Shown: positions 4,233 through 58,880, counted from the stretch's first letter. The stretch is 64,000 nt of DNA from a virus (IMGVR_UViG_3300021399_000117:32001-96000); one strand, 5' to 3'. Notes: generated by a model from the letters alone, not told the origin. A program made the numbers and translations.

Positions 4233-4466
4233 ATGATCACTACTTTCAAAGAATATATAGCACAACAAATGGTAGGTAAGTCCTTCCATTTTATTTGCGA
4301 TTGTGTCTTTCCCATGGATTTCATAGGTACCATCAAAGGCTACGATGCATCCGGTAGTGAAATCATATTCAAAGTAGAGACTGGCAACAAAATGATTAAC
4401 ATTGGTGAGAACCATCCCAAATTAAAAGTAATACCAGTATGCGAGGCCTGTACGAAAGTATATTAG
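4233..4466 (+). CDS. Small protein with capsid-targeting-like leader (MITTFKEYIAQ)
   Basis: Leader resembles the T4 IPIII CTS MKTYQEFIAE; TTATTAT upstream. Confidence 0.6.
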   Translation: MITTFKEYIAQQMVGKSFHFICDCVFPMDFIGTIKGYDASGSEIIFKVETGNKMINIGENHPKLKVIPVCEACTKVY

Positions 4467-5749
4467 ATGATGAAGATACTATCCTATCTCGTTCGGATAG
4501 AGATGCTAATATGTTGATGTGGTCTGATATTTTGTTCGGTAGTGGGATGCTCAATAAGGGACAGTTTCGTATCAAACCCGGAAGTGACAAGGATAAGTTC
4601 AAATTGGAATACTTTGGTCAAGAATATACAGTTATTCCGATCAAGTTTCTATCAGAAAGATTATACGAACATTTTAGAAAAGGATGTGAAGGTATTTATA
4701 TATATGCTCGAAACATGATAGAGATGATGATAGGGTTTGATTTCGACTTTGACACCCTACCCCATTTTTACGATCTGGAAGGGGATGGATATGATGACCC
4801 ATTCAGAATAGGCACCACTCACATCAATCTTACTAATAACACATATACCTTGCGTAATCTGAACCCAGAAAACCTAGGAATCAATAAGAAAACAACTAAA
4901 AGCACTATATTAAAGATATTTCGCAAAATAGAGCGTGCAGATGTGACTTTCAAAGATTTTCGTTGGGATGCGCCTTATGCTGAGGTGATACTCGAAAATA
5001 TCCGCATAAAAAACACTAAACATATCGAATTGCCTGTTCGCAAAATTACAACATCCAATGTCGATGTGGACAACGCCGCAGATGATGAAACGAAAGAAAT
5101 ATGCATACTTTCGCATGTTCGCGGAGATAGAAGCACAACCGATCAAATATCGTTTAATAATGGTGTATTAAAATTGATTGATACAACTACATCATACACC
5201 GTGCGCGGCAGTTTATCAGGCATTGGAATCAAGTCTATAGTCGGGGACGGAGCAATTATGCGTAATATGCTTACCACTGACGTTCATCTTGTATCCTCAC
5301 TGAAAAAATTATGTGTAATACCATCAACTCAGAAATACATAACATTCGATACCTATAGAAATAAACCAAAAATACTGAACTATAGTCTTCATCGAGAGGT
5401 TGGTAGTGTGCTGCCAAAGATGAAATTCCGCGCCTGGTGTGACACCTCTCATGACAAAGAAAATTGGAAAGACTGGGATGATGTGTCTTGTCTCAATTTT
5501 GTATTCTATGTAGAACGCGGCGCTCTGGATCAAGTACAATCCAATTGTGTACTGATTCGTTTCGCAGATGCCTCTTCACAGATAGTCTCGGATATTCAAA
5601 AATTGTTGAAAAAACATCGTTATATTTCCGACGAAGAACTGGAGACAGTGATACCCCTATCCAATTTCGACAATCTGAAGTTCATCGTTTGGAGCGCTGG
5701 ATCGGGTGAAGGTATAGTAAAGACACCAAAAGGATGGTGCATGAAATAA
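4439..5749 (+). CDS. Hypothetical protein with LYESILDD leader (putative internal head protein)
   Basis: 436 aa ORF; N-terminus MRGLYESILDDEDTIL shared with several other ORFs. Confidence 0.7.
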   Translation: MRGLYESILDDEDTILSRSDRDANMLMWSDILFGSGMLNKGQFRIKPGSDKDKFKLEYFGQEYTVIPIKFLSERLYEHFRKGCEGIYIYARNMIEMMIGFDFDFDTLPHFYDLEGDGYDDPFRIGTTHINLTNNTYTLRNLNPENLGINKKTTKSTILKIFRKIERADVTFKDFRWDAPYAEVILENIRIKNTKHIELPVRKITTSNVDVDNAADDETKEICILSHVRGDRSTTDQISFNNGVLKLIDTTTSYTVRGSLSGIGIKSIVGDGAIMRNMLTTDVHLVSSLKKLCVIPSTQKYITFDTYRNKPKILNYSLHREVGSVLPKMKFRAWCDTSHDKENWKDWDDVSCLNFVFYVERGALDQVQSNCVLIRFADASSQIVSDIQKLLKKHRYISDEELETVIPLSNFDNLKFIVWSAGSGEGIVKTPKGWCMK

Positions 5750-31987: not shown

Positions 31988-32434
31988 TCAAGCTTTTTTC
32001 TTGTACCAGATAATCATTTCCATGGTGTCTTCAGGATCACCAGTAGGCTTGGTTATGTTGTATATTGTATAAATTTTATCAGTCTTCCATTCATCTTTAC
32101 TTATAGCAATAGTGAATCGGGCTTTGAGGAATCCGCGAAGTAGTACCATGATGTTTTGTGCAAAACCTATATATGGTACATTTAGTATGATAGCTGGTAG
32201 TTCACCTATATCAGTACCATGTACAGAATACCCTTTCTCAGGTTTGATGCCATTTTTCTTACAGTAGTTTTTGATATCATTCCATTTGAAGTATCGCGCA
32301 ATCTGAACATCGGTATAAGCATCATTACTCATGGTTATGTTCGAGATATCATAGACATCCTTCAGACGTTTCATGGACTGGCTGGCAATAACCTGTTCAT
32401 CGTCTAATATGGATTCGTACAGTGATTTCATCAT
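31988..32434 (-). CDS. Hypothetical protein with MKSLYESILDD leader
   Basis: Shared leader motif. Confidence 0.7.
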   Translation of the reverse strand: MMKSLYESILDDEQVIASQSMKRLKDVYDISNITMSNDAYTDVQIARYFKWNDIKNYCKKNGIKPEKGYSVHGTDIGELPAIILNVPYIGFAQNIMVLLRGFLKARFTIAISKDEWKTDKIYTIYNITKPTGDPEDTMEMIIWYKKKA

Positions 32435-43525: not shown

Positions 43526-45004
43526 ATGAAGTCATTAAAGGATACGATATTGGAACAATTTGATTCGAAACCGACCCTAACCCATACAGGATTTCAAATT
43601 TTGCACCCATTGACTGAATATCTGCTTAATGAAGACAAATATGTCGGCTCTTCTGATCAAGCTATATATGCTCGGTTGGGAATGCACAAATATAATCACT
43701 TGCCCAAAAATAAACAAGAAGAGGTTAAACGGCATTTTCCTGGAGCTCCAGGTAATAAATCTGCTTTGGCCCGATGGTTCAAATCTGTCAATGGCAAATT
43801 AGTACCTAACCAATACGAGTTTATTGGGAGATCTGATTGGAACATGTTAGACCAGATCGGAGAAATCGAAAATTCTTTAATGGCTCCCCACAAATGGTCA
43901 TATTTTGAACTGATTCGGAAAAATCCTAGACCGAAGAAGAACAAGATACTTACTGTTTTGGAATGTTCCAATTCTAAACCATATTGTCAGGATTCTGCAA
44001 AAAAGTGGTACTTTAAACGGTTCAGATCGTTTACCGATTTTGCTTGCGGCGCGTATGGTATAGTACCGGAAGAATATTCACAATTGTATCCGGTACGTGA
44101 GGATGAATGGGCACATAGCGATGAGTCGGAATCTGTAGCATTCAAATACAATTTGATTTCCTGTAACCGTGGGTATCAATATATCAAAGATATGGGTTAC
44201 GAGAAGGTGATTGTATTCTTCCAAAATCCTGCGCCAGAGGAGTTCATGCGATGGATGAAAAATATGCCCGGCATGGAGGATAAACTGATCTTCGTCATTA
44301 CTCCGCAATTAGTGGACAAACTTAAAAAACATTACCCTCAATTAGGTAACGGTCTAATCATCACACGAATGATGATGCTCTCAGAGGTTCATGAGGCATA
44401 TATGAATGCTTTAAGCAAGTGTTTGTCCGGTGAGGATCGAGAAAGGTTTAACGAGATCAAAAAACTGGTCAATGACGAGGATAAAACTGGTCAAAAGAAG
44501 TGGATTGAGGATACCAACCAAAAATTCGGAATCGAGGAATACCGGGTAGACAGACCAGGCTGGGAGGTAAAACTTGCTAAAGGTGATATAAATATACACA
44601 GTCGTACATCAGATGTAACACAGAAAAAAGTCGATGAGATTTCTAATTGGATTTCGTCCTGGGTTGAAAAACAAAACGAAAAAGACATCAAAAAAGACAA
44701 GATAGACTGGTACAAAGAACGTCTGATATTTACCCCGCTAGATCTTATCATCGATCATTACGAACTGGGAGAGAAGAATCCAAAAAAATTGGATATCGAC
44801 GAGGAGTATTGGAACGTGATGGCTGCGCTAGAAAAACACGCTCAAGAATGGGGTATAAAAAGGGTCAACCCTGATAAGTATCACAGATATGATTATTTGT
44901 GGTGTTTCGAAAGGGTGTGCAAAGAGGTTAAAAAAGATGATATGATCGAATATTGCGACAAAACTGGCTTGTCCCAATTTTATCAAAATGTATTAGACAG
45001 ATAA
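43526..45004 (+). CDS. ArcS-like (DUF5591-type domain) protein with capsid-targeting-like leader
   Basis: VLECSNSKPY and YGIVPEEYSQLYP resemble ArcS LPCS..KPY and LGIVPRELE..YP; leader MKSLKDTILE. Confidence 0.6.
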   Translation: MKSLKDTILEQFDSKPTLTHTGFQILHPLTEYLLNEDKYVGSSDQAIYARLGMHKYNHLPKNKQEEVKRHFPGAPGNKSALARWFKSVNGKLVPNQYEFIGRSDWNMLDQIGEIENSLMAPHKWSYFELIRKNPRPKKNKILTVLECSNSKPYCQDSAKKWYFKRFRSFTDFACGAYGIVPEEYSQLYPVREDEWAHSDESESVAFKYNLISCNRGYQYIKDMGYEKVIVFFQNPAPEEFMRWMKNMPGMEDKLIFVITPQLVDKLKKHYPQLGNGLIITRMMMLSEVHEAYMNALSKCLSGEDRERFNEIKKLVNDEDKTGQKKWIEDTNQKFGIEEYRVDRPGWEVKLAKGDINIHSRTSDVTQKKVDEISNWISSWVEKQNEKDIKKDKIDWYKERLIFTPLDLIIDHYELGEKNPKKLDIDEEYWNVMAALEKHAQEWGIKRVNPDKYHRYDYLWCFERVCKEVKKDDMIEYCDKTGLSQFYQNVLDR

Positions 45005-45558
45005 TGAGAAACCTTTACGAAAGCATATTAGATGACGAATTGGATGTCATGGCTAAAGGTGATAAGGGTGGAGAGCGTTTGCTTCATGCATATGACATGA
45101 TGAAGATGTTGGTAGATCATCTGGATATCGTTCGCAAGGAGGGTGCTGATGACCCAACACAAACATCATACAAGTGCCCACTGTACTTCAAATTCAGAAA
45201 TGGATTGAATGATCCGTTCGGAACGGTTCGTAAGCGCCTCGCGGACTTCAAGAACGATATGAAGAAGTATCCTGAGTTCAAGATAAACATTCATACTACC
45301 AGCAAGAAGGAATCCATGACTACACCAGGTCAGAGACGGGAGTATGGCGTGGGTCTGATGTATAATCTCATTAAGAGATACAATATCGCGATCGAAGAAG
45401 GCAAAAAGATGTTCGGTACTATCGATATCACAATCGAACAGTACGACTTCAACAAAGAACTACACGCCTCTAAGATGAACATATATGTTATGGCAAGTGG
45501 GTTCGATTACAGAGACCTATACCGGGTTATACTAGACCAAATGGATAGCAAAAAATGA
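45004..45558 (+). CDS. Hypothetical protein with MRNLYESILDD leader
   Basis: Start at 45004 overlaps the previous TAA; leader motif. Confidence 0.7.
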   Translation: MRNLYESILDDELDVMAKGDKGGERLLHAYDMMKMLVDHLDIVRKEGADDPTQTSYKCPLYFKFRNGLNDPFGTVRKRLADFKNDMKKYPEFKINIHTTSKKESMTTPGQRREYGVGLMYNLIKRYNIAIEEGKKMFGTIDITIEQYDFNKELHASKMNIYVMASGFDYRDLYRVILDQMDSKK

Positions 45559-49601: not shown

Positions 49602-49633
49602 ATCATAGCCACTTCCTGTTTATTATTTATATC

Positions 49634-50701
49634 ATGAAACAATTATCCACATATCTAATGGAGCACGTCGCACCTATCTTTGAGGGTGGTGCCGGAGGTC
49701 ATATGCTCCATCCATATCTCCTCAACTGGGTGAAGTCTGGTAAGGACCTCATCAAGTTCTATGAGTCGGTTGCCAAGAATATGGAGAACTTGAACGCCAG
49801 CATGAAGATTGATGGTGTCAATGTATCTATCCGTATGGTAGACGGTGAGTTCGTTTTCGACCGCATGTCTCCAAAGGACATCGAAGGTATTAAGAAAGAC
49901 CAACTCGCTGATCGATTTGGTGCAGGACATGGTCTTGTTAAGATGGGTGGTCTCGTACTCGATATATTCAACTCATGTATTGATTCATGTAAGTCCGAAC
50001 TCAAACAGTTAGGTCTGTTAGATGACGAGACTATATTATTCAATATAGAGTATGTCGACAAAAACACCAACCTCATCTCCTACAGTAACAGCTTCCTAGC
50101 CATTCATGGCTTGCTCAAGTTCGAAGTGAACGGCAAAAACCGCACCACTCACGAAGTAAACTATGACCAGAAGACATTGGATAATCTCATCGAAAAGCTC
50201 AACAAAGCATCAGCTAAATACGGCTTCGATGTAGTAGGCTCAGTTGGTATCGAAATCAAGCGTAAACCTGATCTCAATAAGGTGCTCAAGGAGTCACTCA
50301 CTATCAACGCATTTGGTGAGCCTGGTAGCAAAACAATCGAAGAGTGGTTGAATGACATCAACGAGTTCGATGTGACCAAATATGCTACTACGTTCAGCCT
50401 CGGTCGCATCAGTGTCATCTCACATAAAGCATACGTTGCTTGCACCAACGTTGATGTACCTCTCAACAGTGTATTCAAGAAGGAACAAGACATACCTAAC
50501 ATCATCAACAGCTTCATCATCTACGAAGCCAACAGACGTTTCGGTGACGAGATACTTAGTTGTATAGACAGCAAGATTGGTGCAGGTAATGATAATGAAG
50601 GTATCGTTGTTCGTAACAAGTCAATCACCAAGACAGATGCTCCAGTCAAGATTACCGGTAGCTTCTCTATCAATATAGCAAATTCACGTTTCGCAAAATG
50701 A
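49634..50701 (+). CDS. Leader-bearing protein with ligase-like KxDG motif
   Basis: MKQLSTYLME..IFEGGAGGHMLHP; SMKIDGVN, NIEY, NEGIVV and PVKITG resemble covalent nucleotidyltransferase motifs I, III, IV and V. Confidence 0.55.
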   Translation: MKQLSTYLMEHVAPIFEGGAGGHMLHPYLLNWVKSGKDLIKFYESVAKNMENLNASMKIDGVNVSIRMVDGEFVFDRMSPKDIEGIKKDQLADRFGAGHGLVKMGGLVLDIFNSCIDSCKSELKQLGLLDDETILFNIEYVDKNTNLISYSNSFLAIHGLLKFEVNGKNRTTHEVNYDQKTLDNLIEKLNKASAKYGFDVVGSVGIEIKRKPDLNKVLKESLTINAFGEPGSKTIEEWLNDINEFDVTKYATTFSLGRISVISHKAYVACTNVDVPLNSVFKKEQDIPNIINSFIIYEANRRFGDEILSCIDSKIGAGNDNEGIVVRNKSITKTDAPVKITGSFSINIANSRFAK

Positions 50702-51543
50702 AAAGTCTATATCAATTCATACTCGAAGGGGGTCATGCAGTAACAGCATCACCAATCCCAGCAGAGATGTCCATGCCTATCTATAAGGAGATCGAGGCAA
50801 AGCTCTTGGAGACAGCACATACACTCCAAGGTCACATTGCTGTTCTAGGTTCAGTAGGCAAAAAGAAGAAAGGTGATTACAATGGGGATATCGATGTTGC
50901 TATCGAGTTCAACCGTCACCAATTCGAGGAGATACTTAAGAAGACCTTCCCGGATGCTGAATACGCGAAGGCTTCTATGCCGAATATCGTTTCTATCAAC
51001 TACCCATACGATTACAAAGGTCGCACATCATATGCTCAGGTAGACTTTATGATAGTGGATGACTTGGAGTGGGCACTATTCGTATATAACTCTCCAGACT
51101 TCACAATCGATGAGTCACACTACAAGGCCGCTATCCGCAACCATCTGTTGAGTATAATGATATCCGAGGTGCCTACAGGTGAGGCAGATCAGGTCAACGA
51201 TAAGGGCGAGGTAGAGACCCGTTGGAAACACTCACTGAACTTCGCATTCGGTGTGACCAAGCAGTTCCTCGATTACAGAGGACGTAATGGTTTGCTCAAG
51301 AACCCGAAGAAAGTCAAGGAGTTCGAGCAGGTAGTAACCAAGAACAAAAAGGAGTTCATCGAACTGCTATTTGATGGTGGTAAGGATGAGGACTTCAAGA
51401 GTCTCGAGACCCTTTGGAAGGCACTTCATACCAAATACAAATACCAGGATCGTATAGGTACTATCGAAGACCGCTTCTACGTTGAAGTACTCGAACGTAA
51501 CGGTCTCGATCGCGATGAGTTCCTAAAATATATCAATCAGTAA
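50698..51543 (+). CDS. Leader-bearing Pol-beta-superfamily nucleotidyltransferase
   Basis: MKSLYQFILEGG; LGSVG....GDIDVAI and QVDFM catalytic pattern. Confidence 0.7.
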   Translation: MKSLYQFILEGGHAVTASPIPAEMSMPIYKEIEAKLLETAHTLQGHIAVLGSVGKKKKGDYNGDIDVAIEFNRHQFEEILKKTFPDAEYAKASMPNIVSINYPYDYKGRTSYAQVDFMIVDDLEWALFVYNSPDFTIDESHYKAAIRNHLLSIMISEVPTGEADQVNDKGEVETRWKHSLNFAFGVTKQFLDYRGRNGLLKNPKKVKEFEQVVTKNKKEFIELLFDGGKDEDFKSLETLWKALHTKYKYQDRIGTIEDRFYVEVLERNGLDRDEFLKYINQ

Positions 51544-53090
51544 TGCAAAGTCTATCAAACTACTTAATAGAAAATCTGCATCCTATATTCGAGCGCGGAC
51601 GTAGCAATGCTTCCAAAGAGACCATGATTCAGGAGCTGATGACCTGCGTGTTCTTCGATGCATACTTCAATCAGAATGAGAACTTCTCGAAGGTTGAGGA
51701 TATCATCGAATACTACAACAAGGTCAAGGATTCTGTGATAACCAAACTCTGTGTGAGTGGTCTCAAGATTAAGGACTTCGATGAGTTCTTATTGGAGACA
51801 GAGCTAAAGGGTCGTGGTAATAATAAGGAAGAGCGCTATACCAAGAAGGCGTTGGATTGGCAAAAGTCATTCCTATATCAATGCGAATCCTTTGATAACT
51901 GGTTGAAGGACCACAAATCATTCCCAGCAAAGAACCTGGTATTCCTCCATCACGACACTTCACTAGGTGTACGTAATGGTCAAGTATCTTCGGGATGGTC
52001 ACTAGCGGATCGTGTTGATAAGGGTGTGTCAAAGGCAGGTTATTCACGCAAAGACGATTACCAAAAGGCTGACATTTATGCACTCACTCAAAATGTTGCA
52101 GATAAACCTATGGATGATCTTGCTCAGGAATTGTTATACTGGCAACAGGCTATCGATGGTTCAACAACTCCGTTTGTAGGCATATCACTAAAACAATTGA
52201 TAAAGCCATTATCACATATCCACACCTATAATATGGATAAACTATCCATTTCGATAGACGAAAAAACTATCAAATTATACCTTCCTGTATTTGATGGTGT
52301 GCAGTTTACGAAGATCGATCAACCACTCAAGACGGGTGGCACATCTGCCAAATTTTCATTTGACGCTACCCTGGGTGACGATACTATGAATTTTATATTG
52401 GATATTCGAACAGCATCATCCAGTGCAAGAAGTCGATTGTTCAATAGTGAAAAGAAAGATAACAAAAACGCTTACGACTGCTTCAATGTCACTGTTGGAA
52501 CTCAGTTGAATTCAGCCAAAGTCGGTGGTCAATTAGGTCGAGCACAAGACTTGCTGCAAAAATGGGCGAAAGAAACACACACCGAATATACTGGGGCCGT
52601 CAAATACAATCGTACAGCCAAAGAAAGTGTGTGGGCTGACGCAATGACATTCAATAAGCGCTTGCAAGACATTACCGCGCCTATGATGAAGTACCACATC
52701 AATGGTGATGTACCTAAAATATCTGGTGGTGCAGCTGCGTTGATTGATTGGGTGGCAGTCAATGCTGATGTGATTTTCGATATGTTCACTGATTACAACA
52801 ATGCTGAAGGTAAAACAAGTGCACGAGGTTGGAATGAGGTATTGATTCCATATGGGGAGAAATTAGGGTTTGATATAAACGAATCCAATTACGAAGAGAT
52901 ACTCATTAACATATTTGAAGCGGTCAAATGGAAATCTGCATCATGGAATATATTGTCCATATTGCGAGTGCTGTTTGCCAAGATGAAAAATGCTGATGCA
53001 TCAACCGTATTAAGTCAGATAGCTATGTTTGCCAAAGGCATCAGTTTCGATTCTGACAAAGTCCATCTACCTTATGTGATGATAGGATAA
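51543..53090 (+). CDS. Leader-bearing PD-(D/E)xK-like nuclease (putative)
   Basis: MQSLSNYLIE; QELMT...KADIY...GISLKQ restriction-endonuclease-like pattern. Confidence 0.5.
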   Translation: MQSLSNYLIENLHPIFERGRSNASKETMIQELMTCVFFDAYFNQNENFSKVEDIIEYYNKVKDSVITKLCVSGLKIKDFDEFLLETELKGRGNNKEERYTKKALDWQKSFLYQCESFDNWLKDHKSFPAKNLVFLHHDTSLGVRNGQVSSGWSLADRVDKGVSKAGYSRKDDYQKADIYALTQNVADKPMDDLAQELLYWQQAIDGSTTPFVGISLKQLIKPLSHIHTYNMDKLSISIDEKTIKLYLPVFDGVQFTKIDQPLKTGGTSAKFSFDATLGDDTMNFILDIRTASSSARSRLFNSEKKDNKNAYDCFNVTVGTQLNSAKVGGQLGRAQDLLQKWAKETHTEYTGAVKYNRTAKESVWADAMTFNKRLQDITAPMMKYHINGDVPKISGGAAALIDWVAVNADVIFDMFTDYNNAEGKTSARGWNEVLIPYGEKLGFDINESNYEEILINIFEAVKWKSASWNILSILRVLFAKMKNADASTVLSQIAMFAKGISFDSDKVHLPYVMIG

Positions 53091-55429: not shown

Positions 55430-55969
55430 TTAGAGTAGGTCTTCGAAAGAAGCCATCAGCGCGCGGACATATGTCTTGTATGGACTCTTCAGATTACGGA
55501 TTGCGTCCACAATCTTATCGTACTGTGGTGAATTCATGAGAGCGCGGAACTTCCTTTCCATCTCATCATCCCACATATCTTGTGCTTCTGTCTCGGCGTT
55601 ATCTGCTAGATCATCAGGATCGTCTCCGTTTTCTACTGCAATCTGGAATACCTTCCAAGGGTTCCAAGCATCATCAGGTAGTTTATCACAGAGCTTGCGA
55701 AGAACGTCCTCATCGTGTCCTTCGACAACCAGGCTTTCGTTCAAACATTCTTGTAATGATTTCATAGTATGTCTTTCTATGTTTATTGATTCTTCAAAAT
55801 GTTCCTTGAGACCTTTGGTTTTCGCAAAGTCCTCTAGTTGTTTGTCAGTCATATCGGAATTGACGATTTTCATCACTTCATCATCTACCTCTGACTTGTT
55901 CATATCGCCTTTGCGTACGGCGAGTGCCATAGCGAACAAGGCGCGTTGTGCTTTTGATTTTGCTGGCAT
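55430..55969 (-). CDS. DUF3008-like N-terminal domain fused to a second leader-bearing domain
   Basis: MPAKSKAQ..A.A..KG...MTDKQLEDFAKT; internal MKSLQECLNESLVVEG. Confidence 0.6.
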   Translation of the reverse strand: MPAKSKAQRALFAMALAVRKGDMNKSEVDDEVMKIVNSDMTDKQLEDFAKTKGLKEHFEESINIERHTMKSLQECLNESLVVEGHDEDVLRKLCDKLPDDAWNPWKVFQIAVENGDDPDDLADNAETEAQDMWDDEMERKFRALMNSPQYDKIVDAIRNLKSPYKTYVRALMASFEDLL

Positions 55970-55985
55970 GATATAACTAATTGAT

Positions 55986-56783
55986 TTACAAGGTGTTCGG
56001 CTGGAAGAAGTAGTCACATGCACGATTCCGTTCCGCCCATTCTTTTATTTCATCAAAATCTTTATCTGCTTGGTCCGATAGGTTGCTATAGTTAATAGTT
56101 ACCCCACCTGGCAGTTTGAACTCGAACATACCGTAAATGGTGTTCAGTGCTCGTTTGACAAACACCACTACTAATCTGAAGAAGTAGTAGTTGTTATACA
56201 AGTCCTGAATGCGACAGCGTACCATACAATCAATCAAGATATCTGACCAACCGAGGTCACCCATGATGTTGAGTTTGCTGGAGTACATGTTAAAGCTGTA
56301 CGTCAGTGGTGGGTTGAGCATCTGGTTGAAAGTATCCACTTCGTACATGCTGGCCATAACGTCCGTAAGGGTGTATCCCGCCATACCGGTAGTACCGTTG
56401 AATCCGCCTCCGACTGTACCGGTGCCTCCGAACATACTGTACGTAGAGAGCATCATACGTTCGAGAGAGAAGTCGCCCATGGCACCGTATTTCATGTGTT
56501 CTTGGATTTTGAAACAGCCATGCACCCCCATAATCTGGGGCGGGAGCTGGACCATCTTATTGAGTTTGTTACCGACACAGATATCAGAGTTCTTGATCAC
56601 GTACATACGCTCTTCACAAGCCATGTCTACGTTCTCCCAGAACCACTGAGCCGCCTGAAGAATGTACTCCGGTATGCGCTCTGCAGGCACAGCAAACGGG
56701 AGGGCACAGCTCTGTGTGACCTCTTTCTGTACTCTCAAGATGAACTGATGGTCTATATTATCTTCAAATTCTGGTGTCCACAT
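55986..56783 (-). CDS. Neck protein, T4 gp13-like
   Basis: LPPQIMGV, FKLPGGVTINY motif typical of T4-like neck proteins. Confidence 0.7.
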   Translation of the reverse strand: MWTPEFEDNIDHQFILRVQKEVTQSCALPFAVPAERIPEYILQAAQWFWENVDMACEERMYVIKNSDICVGNKLNKMVQLPPQIMGVHGCFKIQEHMKYGAMGDFSLERMMLSTYSMFGGTGTVGGGFNGTTGMAGYTLTDVMASMYEVDTFNQMLNPPLTYSFNMYSSKLNIMGDLGWSDILIDCMVRCRIQDLYNNYYFFRLVVVFVKRALNTIYGMFEFKLPGGVTINYSNLSDQADKDFDEIKEWAERNRACDYFFQPNTL

Positions 56784-58313: not shown

Positions 58314-58880
58314 TCAACGGAACACAAAAACAGCATTCCCTTTATCGTCGAACTCCGGCTTTCTGTTGAACTTGTTAGCCAAGCGCTTTGCCCATTGTGT
58401 GTCACTGGTGGCGCCTACTTGAATAATCCGTGGTTTAGTATCCAAAGGATCATATTTGAACTTCATTATGGATGGAATTACAGCCGCGTTTTTAAGATCA
58501 TCAGGTTTGGCGATCTCGCCATTCTTTTTGTAATATGTTCTCCAATAACCATAGACCTCCACAGAATAGAATAGTCTATTTGCATGACGGTCAGACAAGG
58601 AACTGGTCACATACAGCTCGTATTTGATAGGAGCCTCTTCAACACATTTCTTACCAAGATATGTATTGAACCATTTGACTATTTCTATCCACTCATCATC
58701 ATGTGGTAACAAGTCGTGCTTTTTGATAGCGTCTTTTATATTACGTTTGACTCGAGGTGCGCTATATTCTTCACGCAGACCTTTTTTCAAAGGTCCCCAT
58801 ATCGATAAAAACATTTCTGCAGATTTATCGGCTTTGTCCATGATGTCACTATCTAATATGGATTCGTATAAGGTTTTCAT
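58314..58880 (-). CDS. Hypothetical protein with MKTLYESILD leader
   Basis: Leader; TTATTAT upstream. Confidence 0.7.
   Translation of the reverse strand: MKTLYESILDSDIMDKADKSAEMFLSIWGPLKKGLREEYSAPRVKRNIKDAIKKHDLLPHDDEWIEIVKWFNTYLGKKCVEEAPIKYELYVTSSLSDRHANRLFYSVEVYGYWRTYYKKNGEIAKPDDLKNAAVIPSIMKFKYDPLDTKPRIIQVGATSDTQWAKRLANKFNRKPEFDDKGNAVFVFR

Follow-up and report, generated by a model that had tools for sequence, protein, structure and literature searches.

Three overlapping, leader-tagged genes of an uncultured T4-like phage as a possible capsid-borne module for nucleic-acid end repair

Bases 32001-96000 of the 131,565-bp IMG/VR virus record IMGVR_UViG_3300021399_000117 (64,000 nucleotides, hereafter the window) come from a large, uncultured, T4-like phage, the record being estimated as 62% complete. 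The window contains three overlapping open reading frames (ORFs) for a ligase-like protein, a Pol-beta nucleotidyltransferase (NTase) and a nuclease-like protein, each opening with a predicted capsid-targeting leader. The genes and a short motif ahead of them are as follows.

49634-50701, plus strand: ORF1, 355 aa, ligase/capping-type covalent nucleotidyltransferase, RNA-ligase-like
50698-51543, plus strand: ORF2, 281 aa, Pol-beta-superfamily nucleotidyltransferase (G51-S52, D64-x-D66, D116)
51543-53090, plus strand: ORF3, 515 aa, rare ligase-associated family, candidate PD-(D/E)xK nuclease
49620-49626, plus strand: TTATTAT heptamer, 7 nt upstream of the ORF1 ATG

The frames lie exactly where a prior reading of the DNA without database searches (the sequence-only reading) had placed them, with the ATGA and TAATG junctions it described: the ORF1/ORF2 junction reads ...AAAATGAAA, the ORF2 ATG overlapping the ORF1 TGA stop, and the ORF2/ORF3 junction reads GTAATGCAA, a TAATG overlap. 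TTATTAT shows no enrichment in the window (25 occurrences versus 16.7 +/- 4.6 expected from shuffling) and was dropped as a significant motif, its count not exceeding the shuffled expectation; the heptamer may be a late-promoter element. No tRNA genes were found in the window, and a DNA search of the locus against GenBank phages gave no match. None of the three proteins matched PHROGs, single-sequence and profile searches of the PDB returned nothing significant for ORF1, ORF2 or ORF3, and the sole Pfam signal among them was a sub-threshold NTP_transf_2 match for ORF2 (16.6 bits, cut-off 21).

All three proteins begin with the form M-(K/Q)-x-L-...-h-x-E, in these leaders:

49634-49684, plus strand: ORF1 leader, 17 residues, h-x-E at 8-10 (LME) and 15-17 (IFE), predicted propeptide cut before G18
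50698-50727, plus strand: ORF2 leader, 10 residues, MKSLYQFILE, predicted cut before G11
51543-51593, plus strand: ORF3 leader, 17 residues, h-x-E at 8-10 (LIE) and 15-17 (IFE)

The junctions with the predicted mature parts read ..LME..PIFE|GG in ORF1, ..FILE|GG in ORF2 and ..LIE..PIFE|RG in ORF3. The ORF1 and ORF3 leaders are identical at 10 of 17 residues, E10 and G12 are almost invariant in the ORF2 family, and ORF1 homologues at only 40% identity still bear leaders of the same style. F7, I8 and E10 of the ORF2 leader are presumably the same as in the capsid-targeting sequence (CTS) of T4 IPIII. The leaders are disordered in both AlphaFold models, with pLDDT below 50 for residues 1-22 of ORF1 and 10-21 of ORF3. 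In the 131-kb record, 22 ORFs start with the strict N-terminal pattern, compared with a mean of 1.6 (maximum 4) in residue-shuffled controls; the mature parts of these 22 proteins, which include an ArcS/DUF5591-like enzyme and a HAD-type phosphatase, are unrelated, and the leader-tagged genes group with head and neck genes. A prohead protease of the T4 gp21 type (Peptidase_S77; 35.9 bits, above the cut-off) is encoded at C1:102997-103326, ~7 kb past the window end, and is fused to a scaffold-like, repeat-rich region (VQKWVVEQYSPE).

The sequence-only reading had called these capsid leaders, and the 22 ORFs against 1.6 expected, together with the gp21-type protease gene, argue for a portable signal of the T4 capsid-targeting type. 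In T4 IPIII the first 10 residues suffice for head targeting, residues 4 and 7 serving targeting and residues 8 and 10 processing (PMC9026906). ORF1-3 resemble the CTS cargo of T4 (the internal proteins and Alt, which are cut by gp21) in having a short propeptide that ends in (L/I)-x-E and a gp21-type protease gene in the same genome, which likewise supplies many unrelated cargo proteins (PMC9026906). They differ in that the putative cargo comprises ligase, NTase, nuclease-like, phosphatase and ArcS-like proteins rather than small basic proteins or an ADP-ribosyltransferase, and in that we infer their packaging and cleavage from the leaders and the protease gene.

A second leader subtype, M(K/R)(S/N/G/T)LYESILDD.., heads four more ORFs (window 4439-5749, 31988-32431, 45004-45558 and 58314-58880), a hint that the phage has two classes of such propeptide.

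ORF1 has the hallmarks of a covalent nucleotidyltransferase, namely motif I KxDG (K58-I59-D60-G61), motifs III, IIIa, IV and V in order, and the fold. Across 28 homologues K58-I-D-G, N137/E139, F154-A-I-H158, E322-G-x-V-x-R327 and K339 are all invariant, and K58 is the predicted AMP-accepting lysine. A family-specific GGxGHM follows directly after the leader, motifs IIIa and IV are separated by an inserted domain of ~130 aa, and the model has no OB domain. In both of two structure searches RNA ligases rank above DNA ligases, and these searches and the invariant motifs support the ligase nature claimed by the sequence-only reading. Homologues of ORF1 form 239 clusters in the protein collection and occur on at least 463 IMG/VR contigs; all five long contigs with a homologue are T4-like, with gp23 and gp21. 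One remote homologue (L086, 407 aa) passes the Pfam RNA_ligase model (30.6 bits versus a cut-off of 27) and aligns with the ORF1 profile at an hhalign probability of 97.8% (E 7e-13), and a tblastn search of phages with another family member (P0080) found nothing even at E <= 10. We rejected ORF1 as a member of DUF6267 (PF19782), which has no match anywhere in the genome: an hhalign comparison of the ORF1 family with two DUF6267 proteins gave a probability of 2.7%, which is not significant, and only the motif order (GG..KxDG..EGxV..K) is alike. The predicted complex of mature ORF1 with mature ORF2 (score 0.01, mark 0.32) speaks neither for nor against binding.

ORF1 shares the KxDG motif set and the nucleotidyltransferase fold with the Rnl1, Rnl2 and Rnl5 ligases. 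As in T4 RNA repair (Rnl1 + Pnkp), a phage ligase lies next to end-modifying enzymes, with a HAD-type phosphatase in the window's genome and a HAD-type domain in T4 Pnkp. In contrast to Rnl1 and Rnl2, ORF1 has the large IIIa-IV insert, lacks their C-terminal domains and has no Pfam or PHROG match; unlike in T4, we found no polynucleotide kinase partner here, and the T4 enzymes are made without capsid-targeting leaders.

ORF2 carries the Pol-beta signature of an hG[GS] loop, a DxD pair and a third carboxylate: L50-G-S..G-K-K, G63-D-I-D66 and D116 are invariant among 23 homologues, in stretches that read LGSxGKK...GDIDIA...QVDFM. Among the 23 family members, up to 11 show sub-threshold matches to NTP_transf_2, Polbeta, DNA_pol_B_palm and MTPAP, and the ESM protein language model gives a feature score of 0.96 to viral nucleotidyltransferase clusters; with the invariant triad, these results agree with the Pol-beta nature assigned earlier. 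The sole PDB profile match of ORF2 is kanamycin nucleotidyltransferase, over the catalytic loop, and is weak (E 0.36). Homologues of ORF2 form 108 clusters, and its nearest relatives in named phages are those of the Lak megaphages (~31% identity). Like RlaP, ORF2 is a predicted Pol-beta-fold NTase that lies beside RNA-ligase-like genes in several divergent phages, the context by which RlaP is defined (PMC12776372, PMC7824862). It differs from RlaP in family (0 of 23 members match PF10127), in bearing a capsid leader and in having an activity that is predicted only.

The ORF2 homologue of the Prevotella phage Lak-B6 (L092:6010-6987, read with TAG as Q) has a second Pol-beta-type NTase ~0.8 kb away on the opposite strand.

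ORF3 belongs to a rare family, with 16 clusters in one search and 29 representatives among 1.84 billion in an exhaustive profile search. An N-terminal domain (residues ~20-230), which holds the invariant residues, is followed by a beta-rich middle and a helical C-terminal domain. Within a set of 28 sequences whose identity falls as low as 19%, T27, Q30, E31, S109, Q113, H137, K170, D171, K175-A-D177-I-Y179, W200, S215 and K217 are invariant, and R157 and E196 are almost so. The E..AD..SLK pattern reported by the sequence-only reading is conserved (E31, D177, S215 and K217) and would fit a PD-(D/E)xK nuclease with a 'D...SxK plus helix-borne E' site, for which ORF3 is a candidate. In D177 and S215-x-K217, a Ser stands at the middle-acid position of the PD-(D/E)xK pattern, as it does in enzymes of the Cfr10I/NgoMIV type.

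The weak matches of ORF3 are DNA nucleases (AddA, AdnA and Cas4-like proteins, with HpaII and HaeIII as feature neighbours). A Pfam scan of its ten most distant relatives gave no family, Foldseek found nothing meaningful in the PDB for the ORF3 model, and tblastn of ORF3 or of its remote relatives P0259 and P0253 against phages returned no match even with the threshold at E <= 10. A search of predicted viral structures did match the whole model, to uncharacterised proteins (465-612 aa) of T4-like cyanophages in culture, best in P-TIM68 (7e-6) and then in S-RIM14, P-SSM3, S-RIM8 and P-HM1. Two other readings of ORF3 were dropped: a Walker-A kinase, as G19..S24-K25 is not conserved in the family, and a 2H phosphoesterase, as there is a single H-x-T motif only.

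The triad as a conserved unit, which the sequence-only reading had implied, is not borne out by the gene neighbourhoods of relatives. The complete set is limited to the closest ones; in the syntenic L002 and L003 the ligase is followed in turn by the Pol-beta NTase, a leader-tagged but unrelated protein of 458 aa (rejected as an ORF3 homologue, since it shares the leader only) and an HxGH cytidylyltransferase-like protein, and in none of 80 more distant IMG/VR loci does ORF2 or ORF3 lie within 10 kb of the ligase. What recurs across divergent T4-like phages is pairs, of the ligase with the Pol-beta NTase, with ORF3 or with an HxGH nucleotidyltransferase. A ligase-like gene is adjacent to, or within ~0.6 kb of, an ORF2 homologue in the window, L002/L003, L090/L091, TK6UmAek and L089. 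The neighbour is a DUF6267 protein that has its own leader and the motifs KWDG, EGFV and KLVD in L090/L091, a ligase-like protein with a weak RNA_ligase match in TK6UmAek, and a KIDG/EGIVF protein, together with HxGH, HAD and cREC genes, in L089. In the P0125 contig, whose synteny with the window otherwise holds, and in L086 and L087, an ORF3 homologue comes immediately after a ligase-like gene; one contig is the exception. In L087 the ORF3 homologue is followed by an HxGH NTase of 287 aa, which was rejected as an ORF2 homologue on that account.

A cREC_REC phosphoesterase-type gene (L089:6496-6873) lies just upstream of the ORF2 homologue in L089, an arrangement that matches published linkages of cRec with RNA ligase (PMC7824862).

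In ~50 of the 80 IMG/VR loci the ligase domain and an HxGH domain are fused, with either one first, and ~20 of the 80 have ORFs of roughly 800-1400 aa. In 80 of 83 ORF1 family proteins h-x-E precedes GGxGHM, and in 54 of these it is internal, after a leader-like stretch; such internal sites could reflect polyprotein processing by the head protease, or the Glu could be part of the fold. The distant relatives resemble the polyvalent head-packaged proteins of Iyer et al. 2017 (PMC5512222) in fusing the ligase with HxGH, HAD, superoxide dismutase (SOD), plastocyanin and GNAT domains (800-1400 aa). Unlike in polyvalent proteins, the domains are parted by leader-like h-x-E sites, which would suit the prohead protease, and not by metallopeptidase (MPTase) domains, and the window encodes its proteins separately.

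Two of the long frames, spanning 1345-1410 codons, show the extent of such fusions: L041:1431-5660 joins an HxGH NTase, an Fe/Mn superoxide dismutase, plastocyanin, the ligase and GNAT, and L023:2944-6978 joins HxGH, DUF2608/HAD, the ligase and GNAT. A leader-like h-x-E|GG junction precedes the ligase domain in each, and both may be cargo polyproteins that the prohead protease cuts.

Some 2 kb past the window end, the window's own genome encodes an HxGH NTase that scores above the cut-off for CTP_transf_like, together with a HAD-like protein that bears the leader. The cassette (L084:1941-5192; genome C1:97941-101192) consists of the HxGH cytidylyltransferase-like gene, which has no leader, the gene for that leader-tagged HAD-like phosphatase and another four small ORFs with leaders, and is followed by a K/E-rich protein of 536 aa and then by the prohead protease with its scaffold-like region.

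A corresponding gene set is found in the T4-like cyanophage P-HM1 (Prochlorococcus phage P-HM1; L096:6048-10598), where PHM1_160, PHM1_161 and PHM1_162 are adjacent. PHM1_160, the structural relative of ORF3, carries ADLWA...GISLKQ and has an hhalign E of 7e-4; PHM1_161 is a DUF6267 protein (457 bits) and PHM1_162 an HxGH protein. The PHM1_160-163 cluster (DUF6267 + cytidylyltransferase) thus combines an ORF3-like protein, a ligase-like protein with KWDG and EGYV motifs and an HxGH NTase, all annotated only as hypothetical proteins or cytidylyltransferases. It differs from the genes described above in that DUF6267 has no significant profile match to the ORF1 family.

A Cys-rich linker motif, CW.GY...K.VPNCV, is common to PHM1_163 and several HxGH-ligase fusions (e.g., P0013).

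Our preferred interpretation, which we hold to be plausible but still short of probable, is that the three genes form a late-expressed nucleic-acid end-repair (heal-and-seal) module, most likely acting on RNA (tRNA) and built as capsid cargo. RNA ligase, an RlaP Pol-beta NTase and HAD phosphatases are a recognised repair set in large phages, in which RlaP adds 1-2 nucleoside monophosphates (NMP) to RNA 3'-OH ends so that ligation restores a functional tRNA (PMC12776372, PMC7824862); the addition of 1-2 NMP was assayed for PfRlaP (PMC12776372). We place tRNA or RNA repair, one of several roles floated in the sequence-only reading, in the lead because published RlaP-type pairings place a ligase next to a Pol-beta NTase (PMC12776372, PMC7824862). 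The phrase 'undescribed protein system', for which the locus had been put forward as a candidate, is too strong for the ligase-NTase pair and stands for the ORF3 family and the capsid tagging. For myoviruses, enzymes and polyvalent proteins packaged in the head have been predicted (PMC5512222, PMC9503650); in the literature searched we met no packaged RNA ligase.

In the proposed mechanism, each protein would be made with its T4-type leader, which would bring it into the prohead core, where the gp21-type protease would cut after h-x-E and expose G18 of ORF1, G11 of ORF2 and about R18 of ORF3. At infection the mature enzymes would exit the head along with the DNA. In the cell, ORF1 adenylylated on K58 would seal breaks with 5'-phosphate and 3'-OH ends, ORF2, acting like RlaP, would first add back one or a few nucleotides where 3' ends are damaged, and ORF3, as a PD-(D/E)xK-like protein and recurring ligase neighbour, would trim or hold the broken ends. 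The HxGH nucleotidyltransferase and the leader-tagged HAD-type phosphatase past the window end, which hundreds of related phages have joined to the ligase domain, would probably complete the kit.

Several observations weigh against this interpretation, and some of them concern the substrate. ORF1 itself has no direct Pfam RNA_ligase (PF09414) match at E <= 1, the link running only via L086; neither ORF2 nor the 23 members of its family match RlaP (PF10127) at E <= 0.1, and the CCA-adding families are likewise unmatched; a leader-tagged polynucleotide kinase was not found, only a dNMP-kinase-like protein and an AAA_28 P-loop protein turning up; and the 62%-complete record shows no other DNA ligase, so that a DNA role of ORF1 is possible. 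The missing DNA ligase would suit an injected, anti-restriction kit for DNA ends, an end-joining-like toolbox of ligase, Pol-X-like NTase, trimming nuclease and HAD 3'-phosphatase that would reseal restriction or CRISPR nicks or double-strand breaks in the entering genome. End joining uses the same enzyme classes, the proteins would travel together with the DNA, five ORF2 homologues have weak DNA_pol_B_palm matches, and the nucleases weakly matched by ORF3 act on DNA. We nevertheless consider a DNA kit unlikely: RNA ligases outrank DNA ligases in both ORF1 structure searches, the OB domain is absent, the sole Pfam link of the ORF1 family is RNA_ligase, the ligase + Pol-beta NTase pairing is documented for RNA repair (PMC12776372), and L087 has a separate NAD-dependent DNA ligase beside its ligase-like/ORF3 pair. 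The enzyme classes also admit small-molecule or protein chemistry, in which nucleotide cofactors or signals (NAD-related, cyclic oligonucleotides) would be made, regenerated or destroyed, or host proteins AMPylated. The HxGH domain fused to the ligase in ~50 loci resembles enzymes of the PPAT/NMNAT type, the AAA_28 protein is NadR-kinase-like, the polyproteins also bear SOD, plastocyanin and GNAT domains, and CD-NTases belong to the Pol-beta NTases. This possibility seems very slight to us, given that the lysine-NMP motifs and fold of ORF1 are of the polynucleotide ligase type, that no match specific to the CD-NTase, cGAS or NMNAT families was obtained and that ORF3 is nuclease-like.

The remaining objections concern delivery. 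Packaging and cleavage are predictions from sequence, the record being that of an uncultured phage. PHM1_160-163 lie among replication genes (uvsX, gp41, mazG) and PHM1_160-162 show no leader, which indicates that capsid delivery is no inherent part of the module; in the Lak phage, too, the ORF2 homologue has no leader and no ligase nearby; and E17 before GGxGHM is kept even inside fusion proteins, where it could belong to the fold and not to a cleavage site. These points, namely relatives without leaders and an h-x-E + GG kept where the ligase domain is internal, also favour the view that ORF1-3 are ordinary, unpackaged cytoplasmic late enzymes whose shared N-terminus is a translation or expression signal or a structural helix. 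We judge this improbable, as one leader stands on 22 proteins whose mature parts are unrelated, is modelled as disordered, measures 10-17 residues and ends in h-x-E, and in ORF2 presumably repeats F7, I8 and E10 of the T4 IPIII CTS; a length of 10 residues and the roles of residues 4, 7, 8 and 10 are documented for the T4 CTS (PMC9026906); a gp21-type protease is encoded nearby, and leader-tagged genes cluster with head and neck genes.

The capsid-borne repair reading can be extended beyond the window, with considerable doubt, to a broad uncultured branch of T4-like phages. These phages may pre-load their capsids with a complete repair kit (an unrecognised RNA-ligase family, a Pol-beta NTase, an HxGH NTase, a HAD phosphatase and a new nuclease-like family), encoded as individual leader-tagged proteins or within giant polyproteins that the prohead protease would cut at internal, leader-like h-x-E sites, so that repair of defence-inflicted RNA or DNA damage could start at genome entry, before phage gene expression. 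Known phage RNA repair, by T4 Rnl1 + Pnkp or by the ligase-RlaP sets of jumbo phages, relies on expression after infection. If the enzymes are packaged and injected, they would constitute a pre-emptive counter-defence against tRNA- or DNA-cleaving immunity, and the known cargo of T4-type heads, so far small internal proteins and Alt, would come to include a repair set of several enzymes.

Phage RNA repair of the ligase + Pol-beta NTase type is known already; new here are the unrecognised families, the ligase-associated ORF3 family and the proposal of capsid delivery. Whatever packaging shows, the ligase-like family of at least 463 viral contigs is recognised by neither Pfam nor PHROGs, and the ORF3 family, with its 29 clusters, is persistently ligase-linked and has structural relatives in cultured cyanophages. 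The conserved h-x-E|GG junction could also be a natural polyprotein-processing site.

Two further leader-bearing genes lie elsewhere in the window. At 43526-45004 (plus strand), a protein of 492 aa with a weak DUF5591 (ArcS-like) match bears the same capsid leader as ORF1-3; its gene forms the end of a 7-deazaguanine cluster (queD, queE and folE2-type genes nearby) and has the same neighbours in L002. At 55430-56023 (minus strand), a DUF3008-like ORF holds a complete in-frame leader (MKSLQECLNESLVVE) 93 codons past the start of the open frame, and represents either two fused cargo genes or a protein with two starts.

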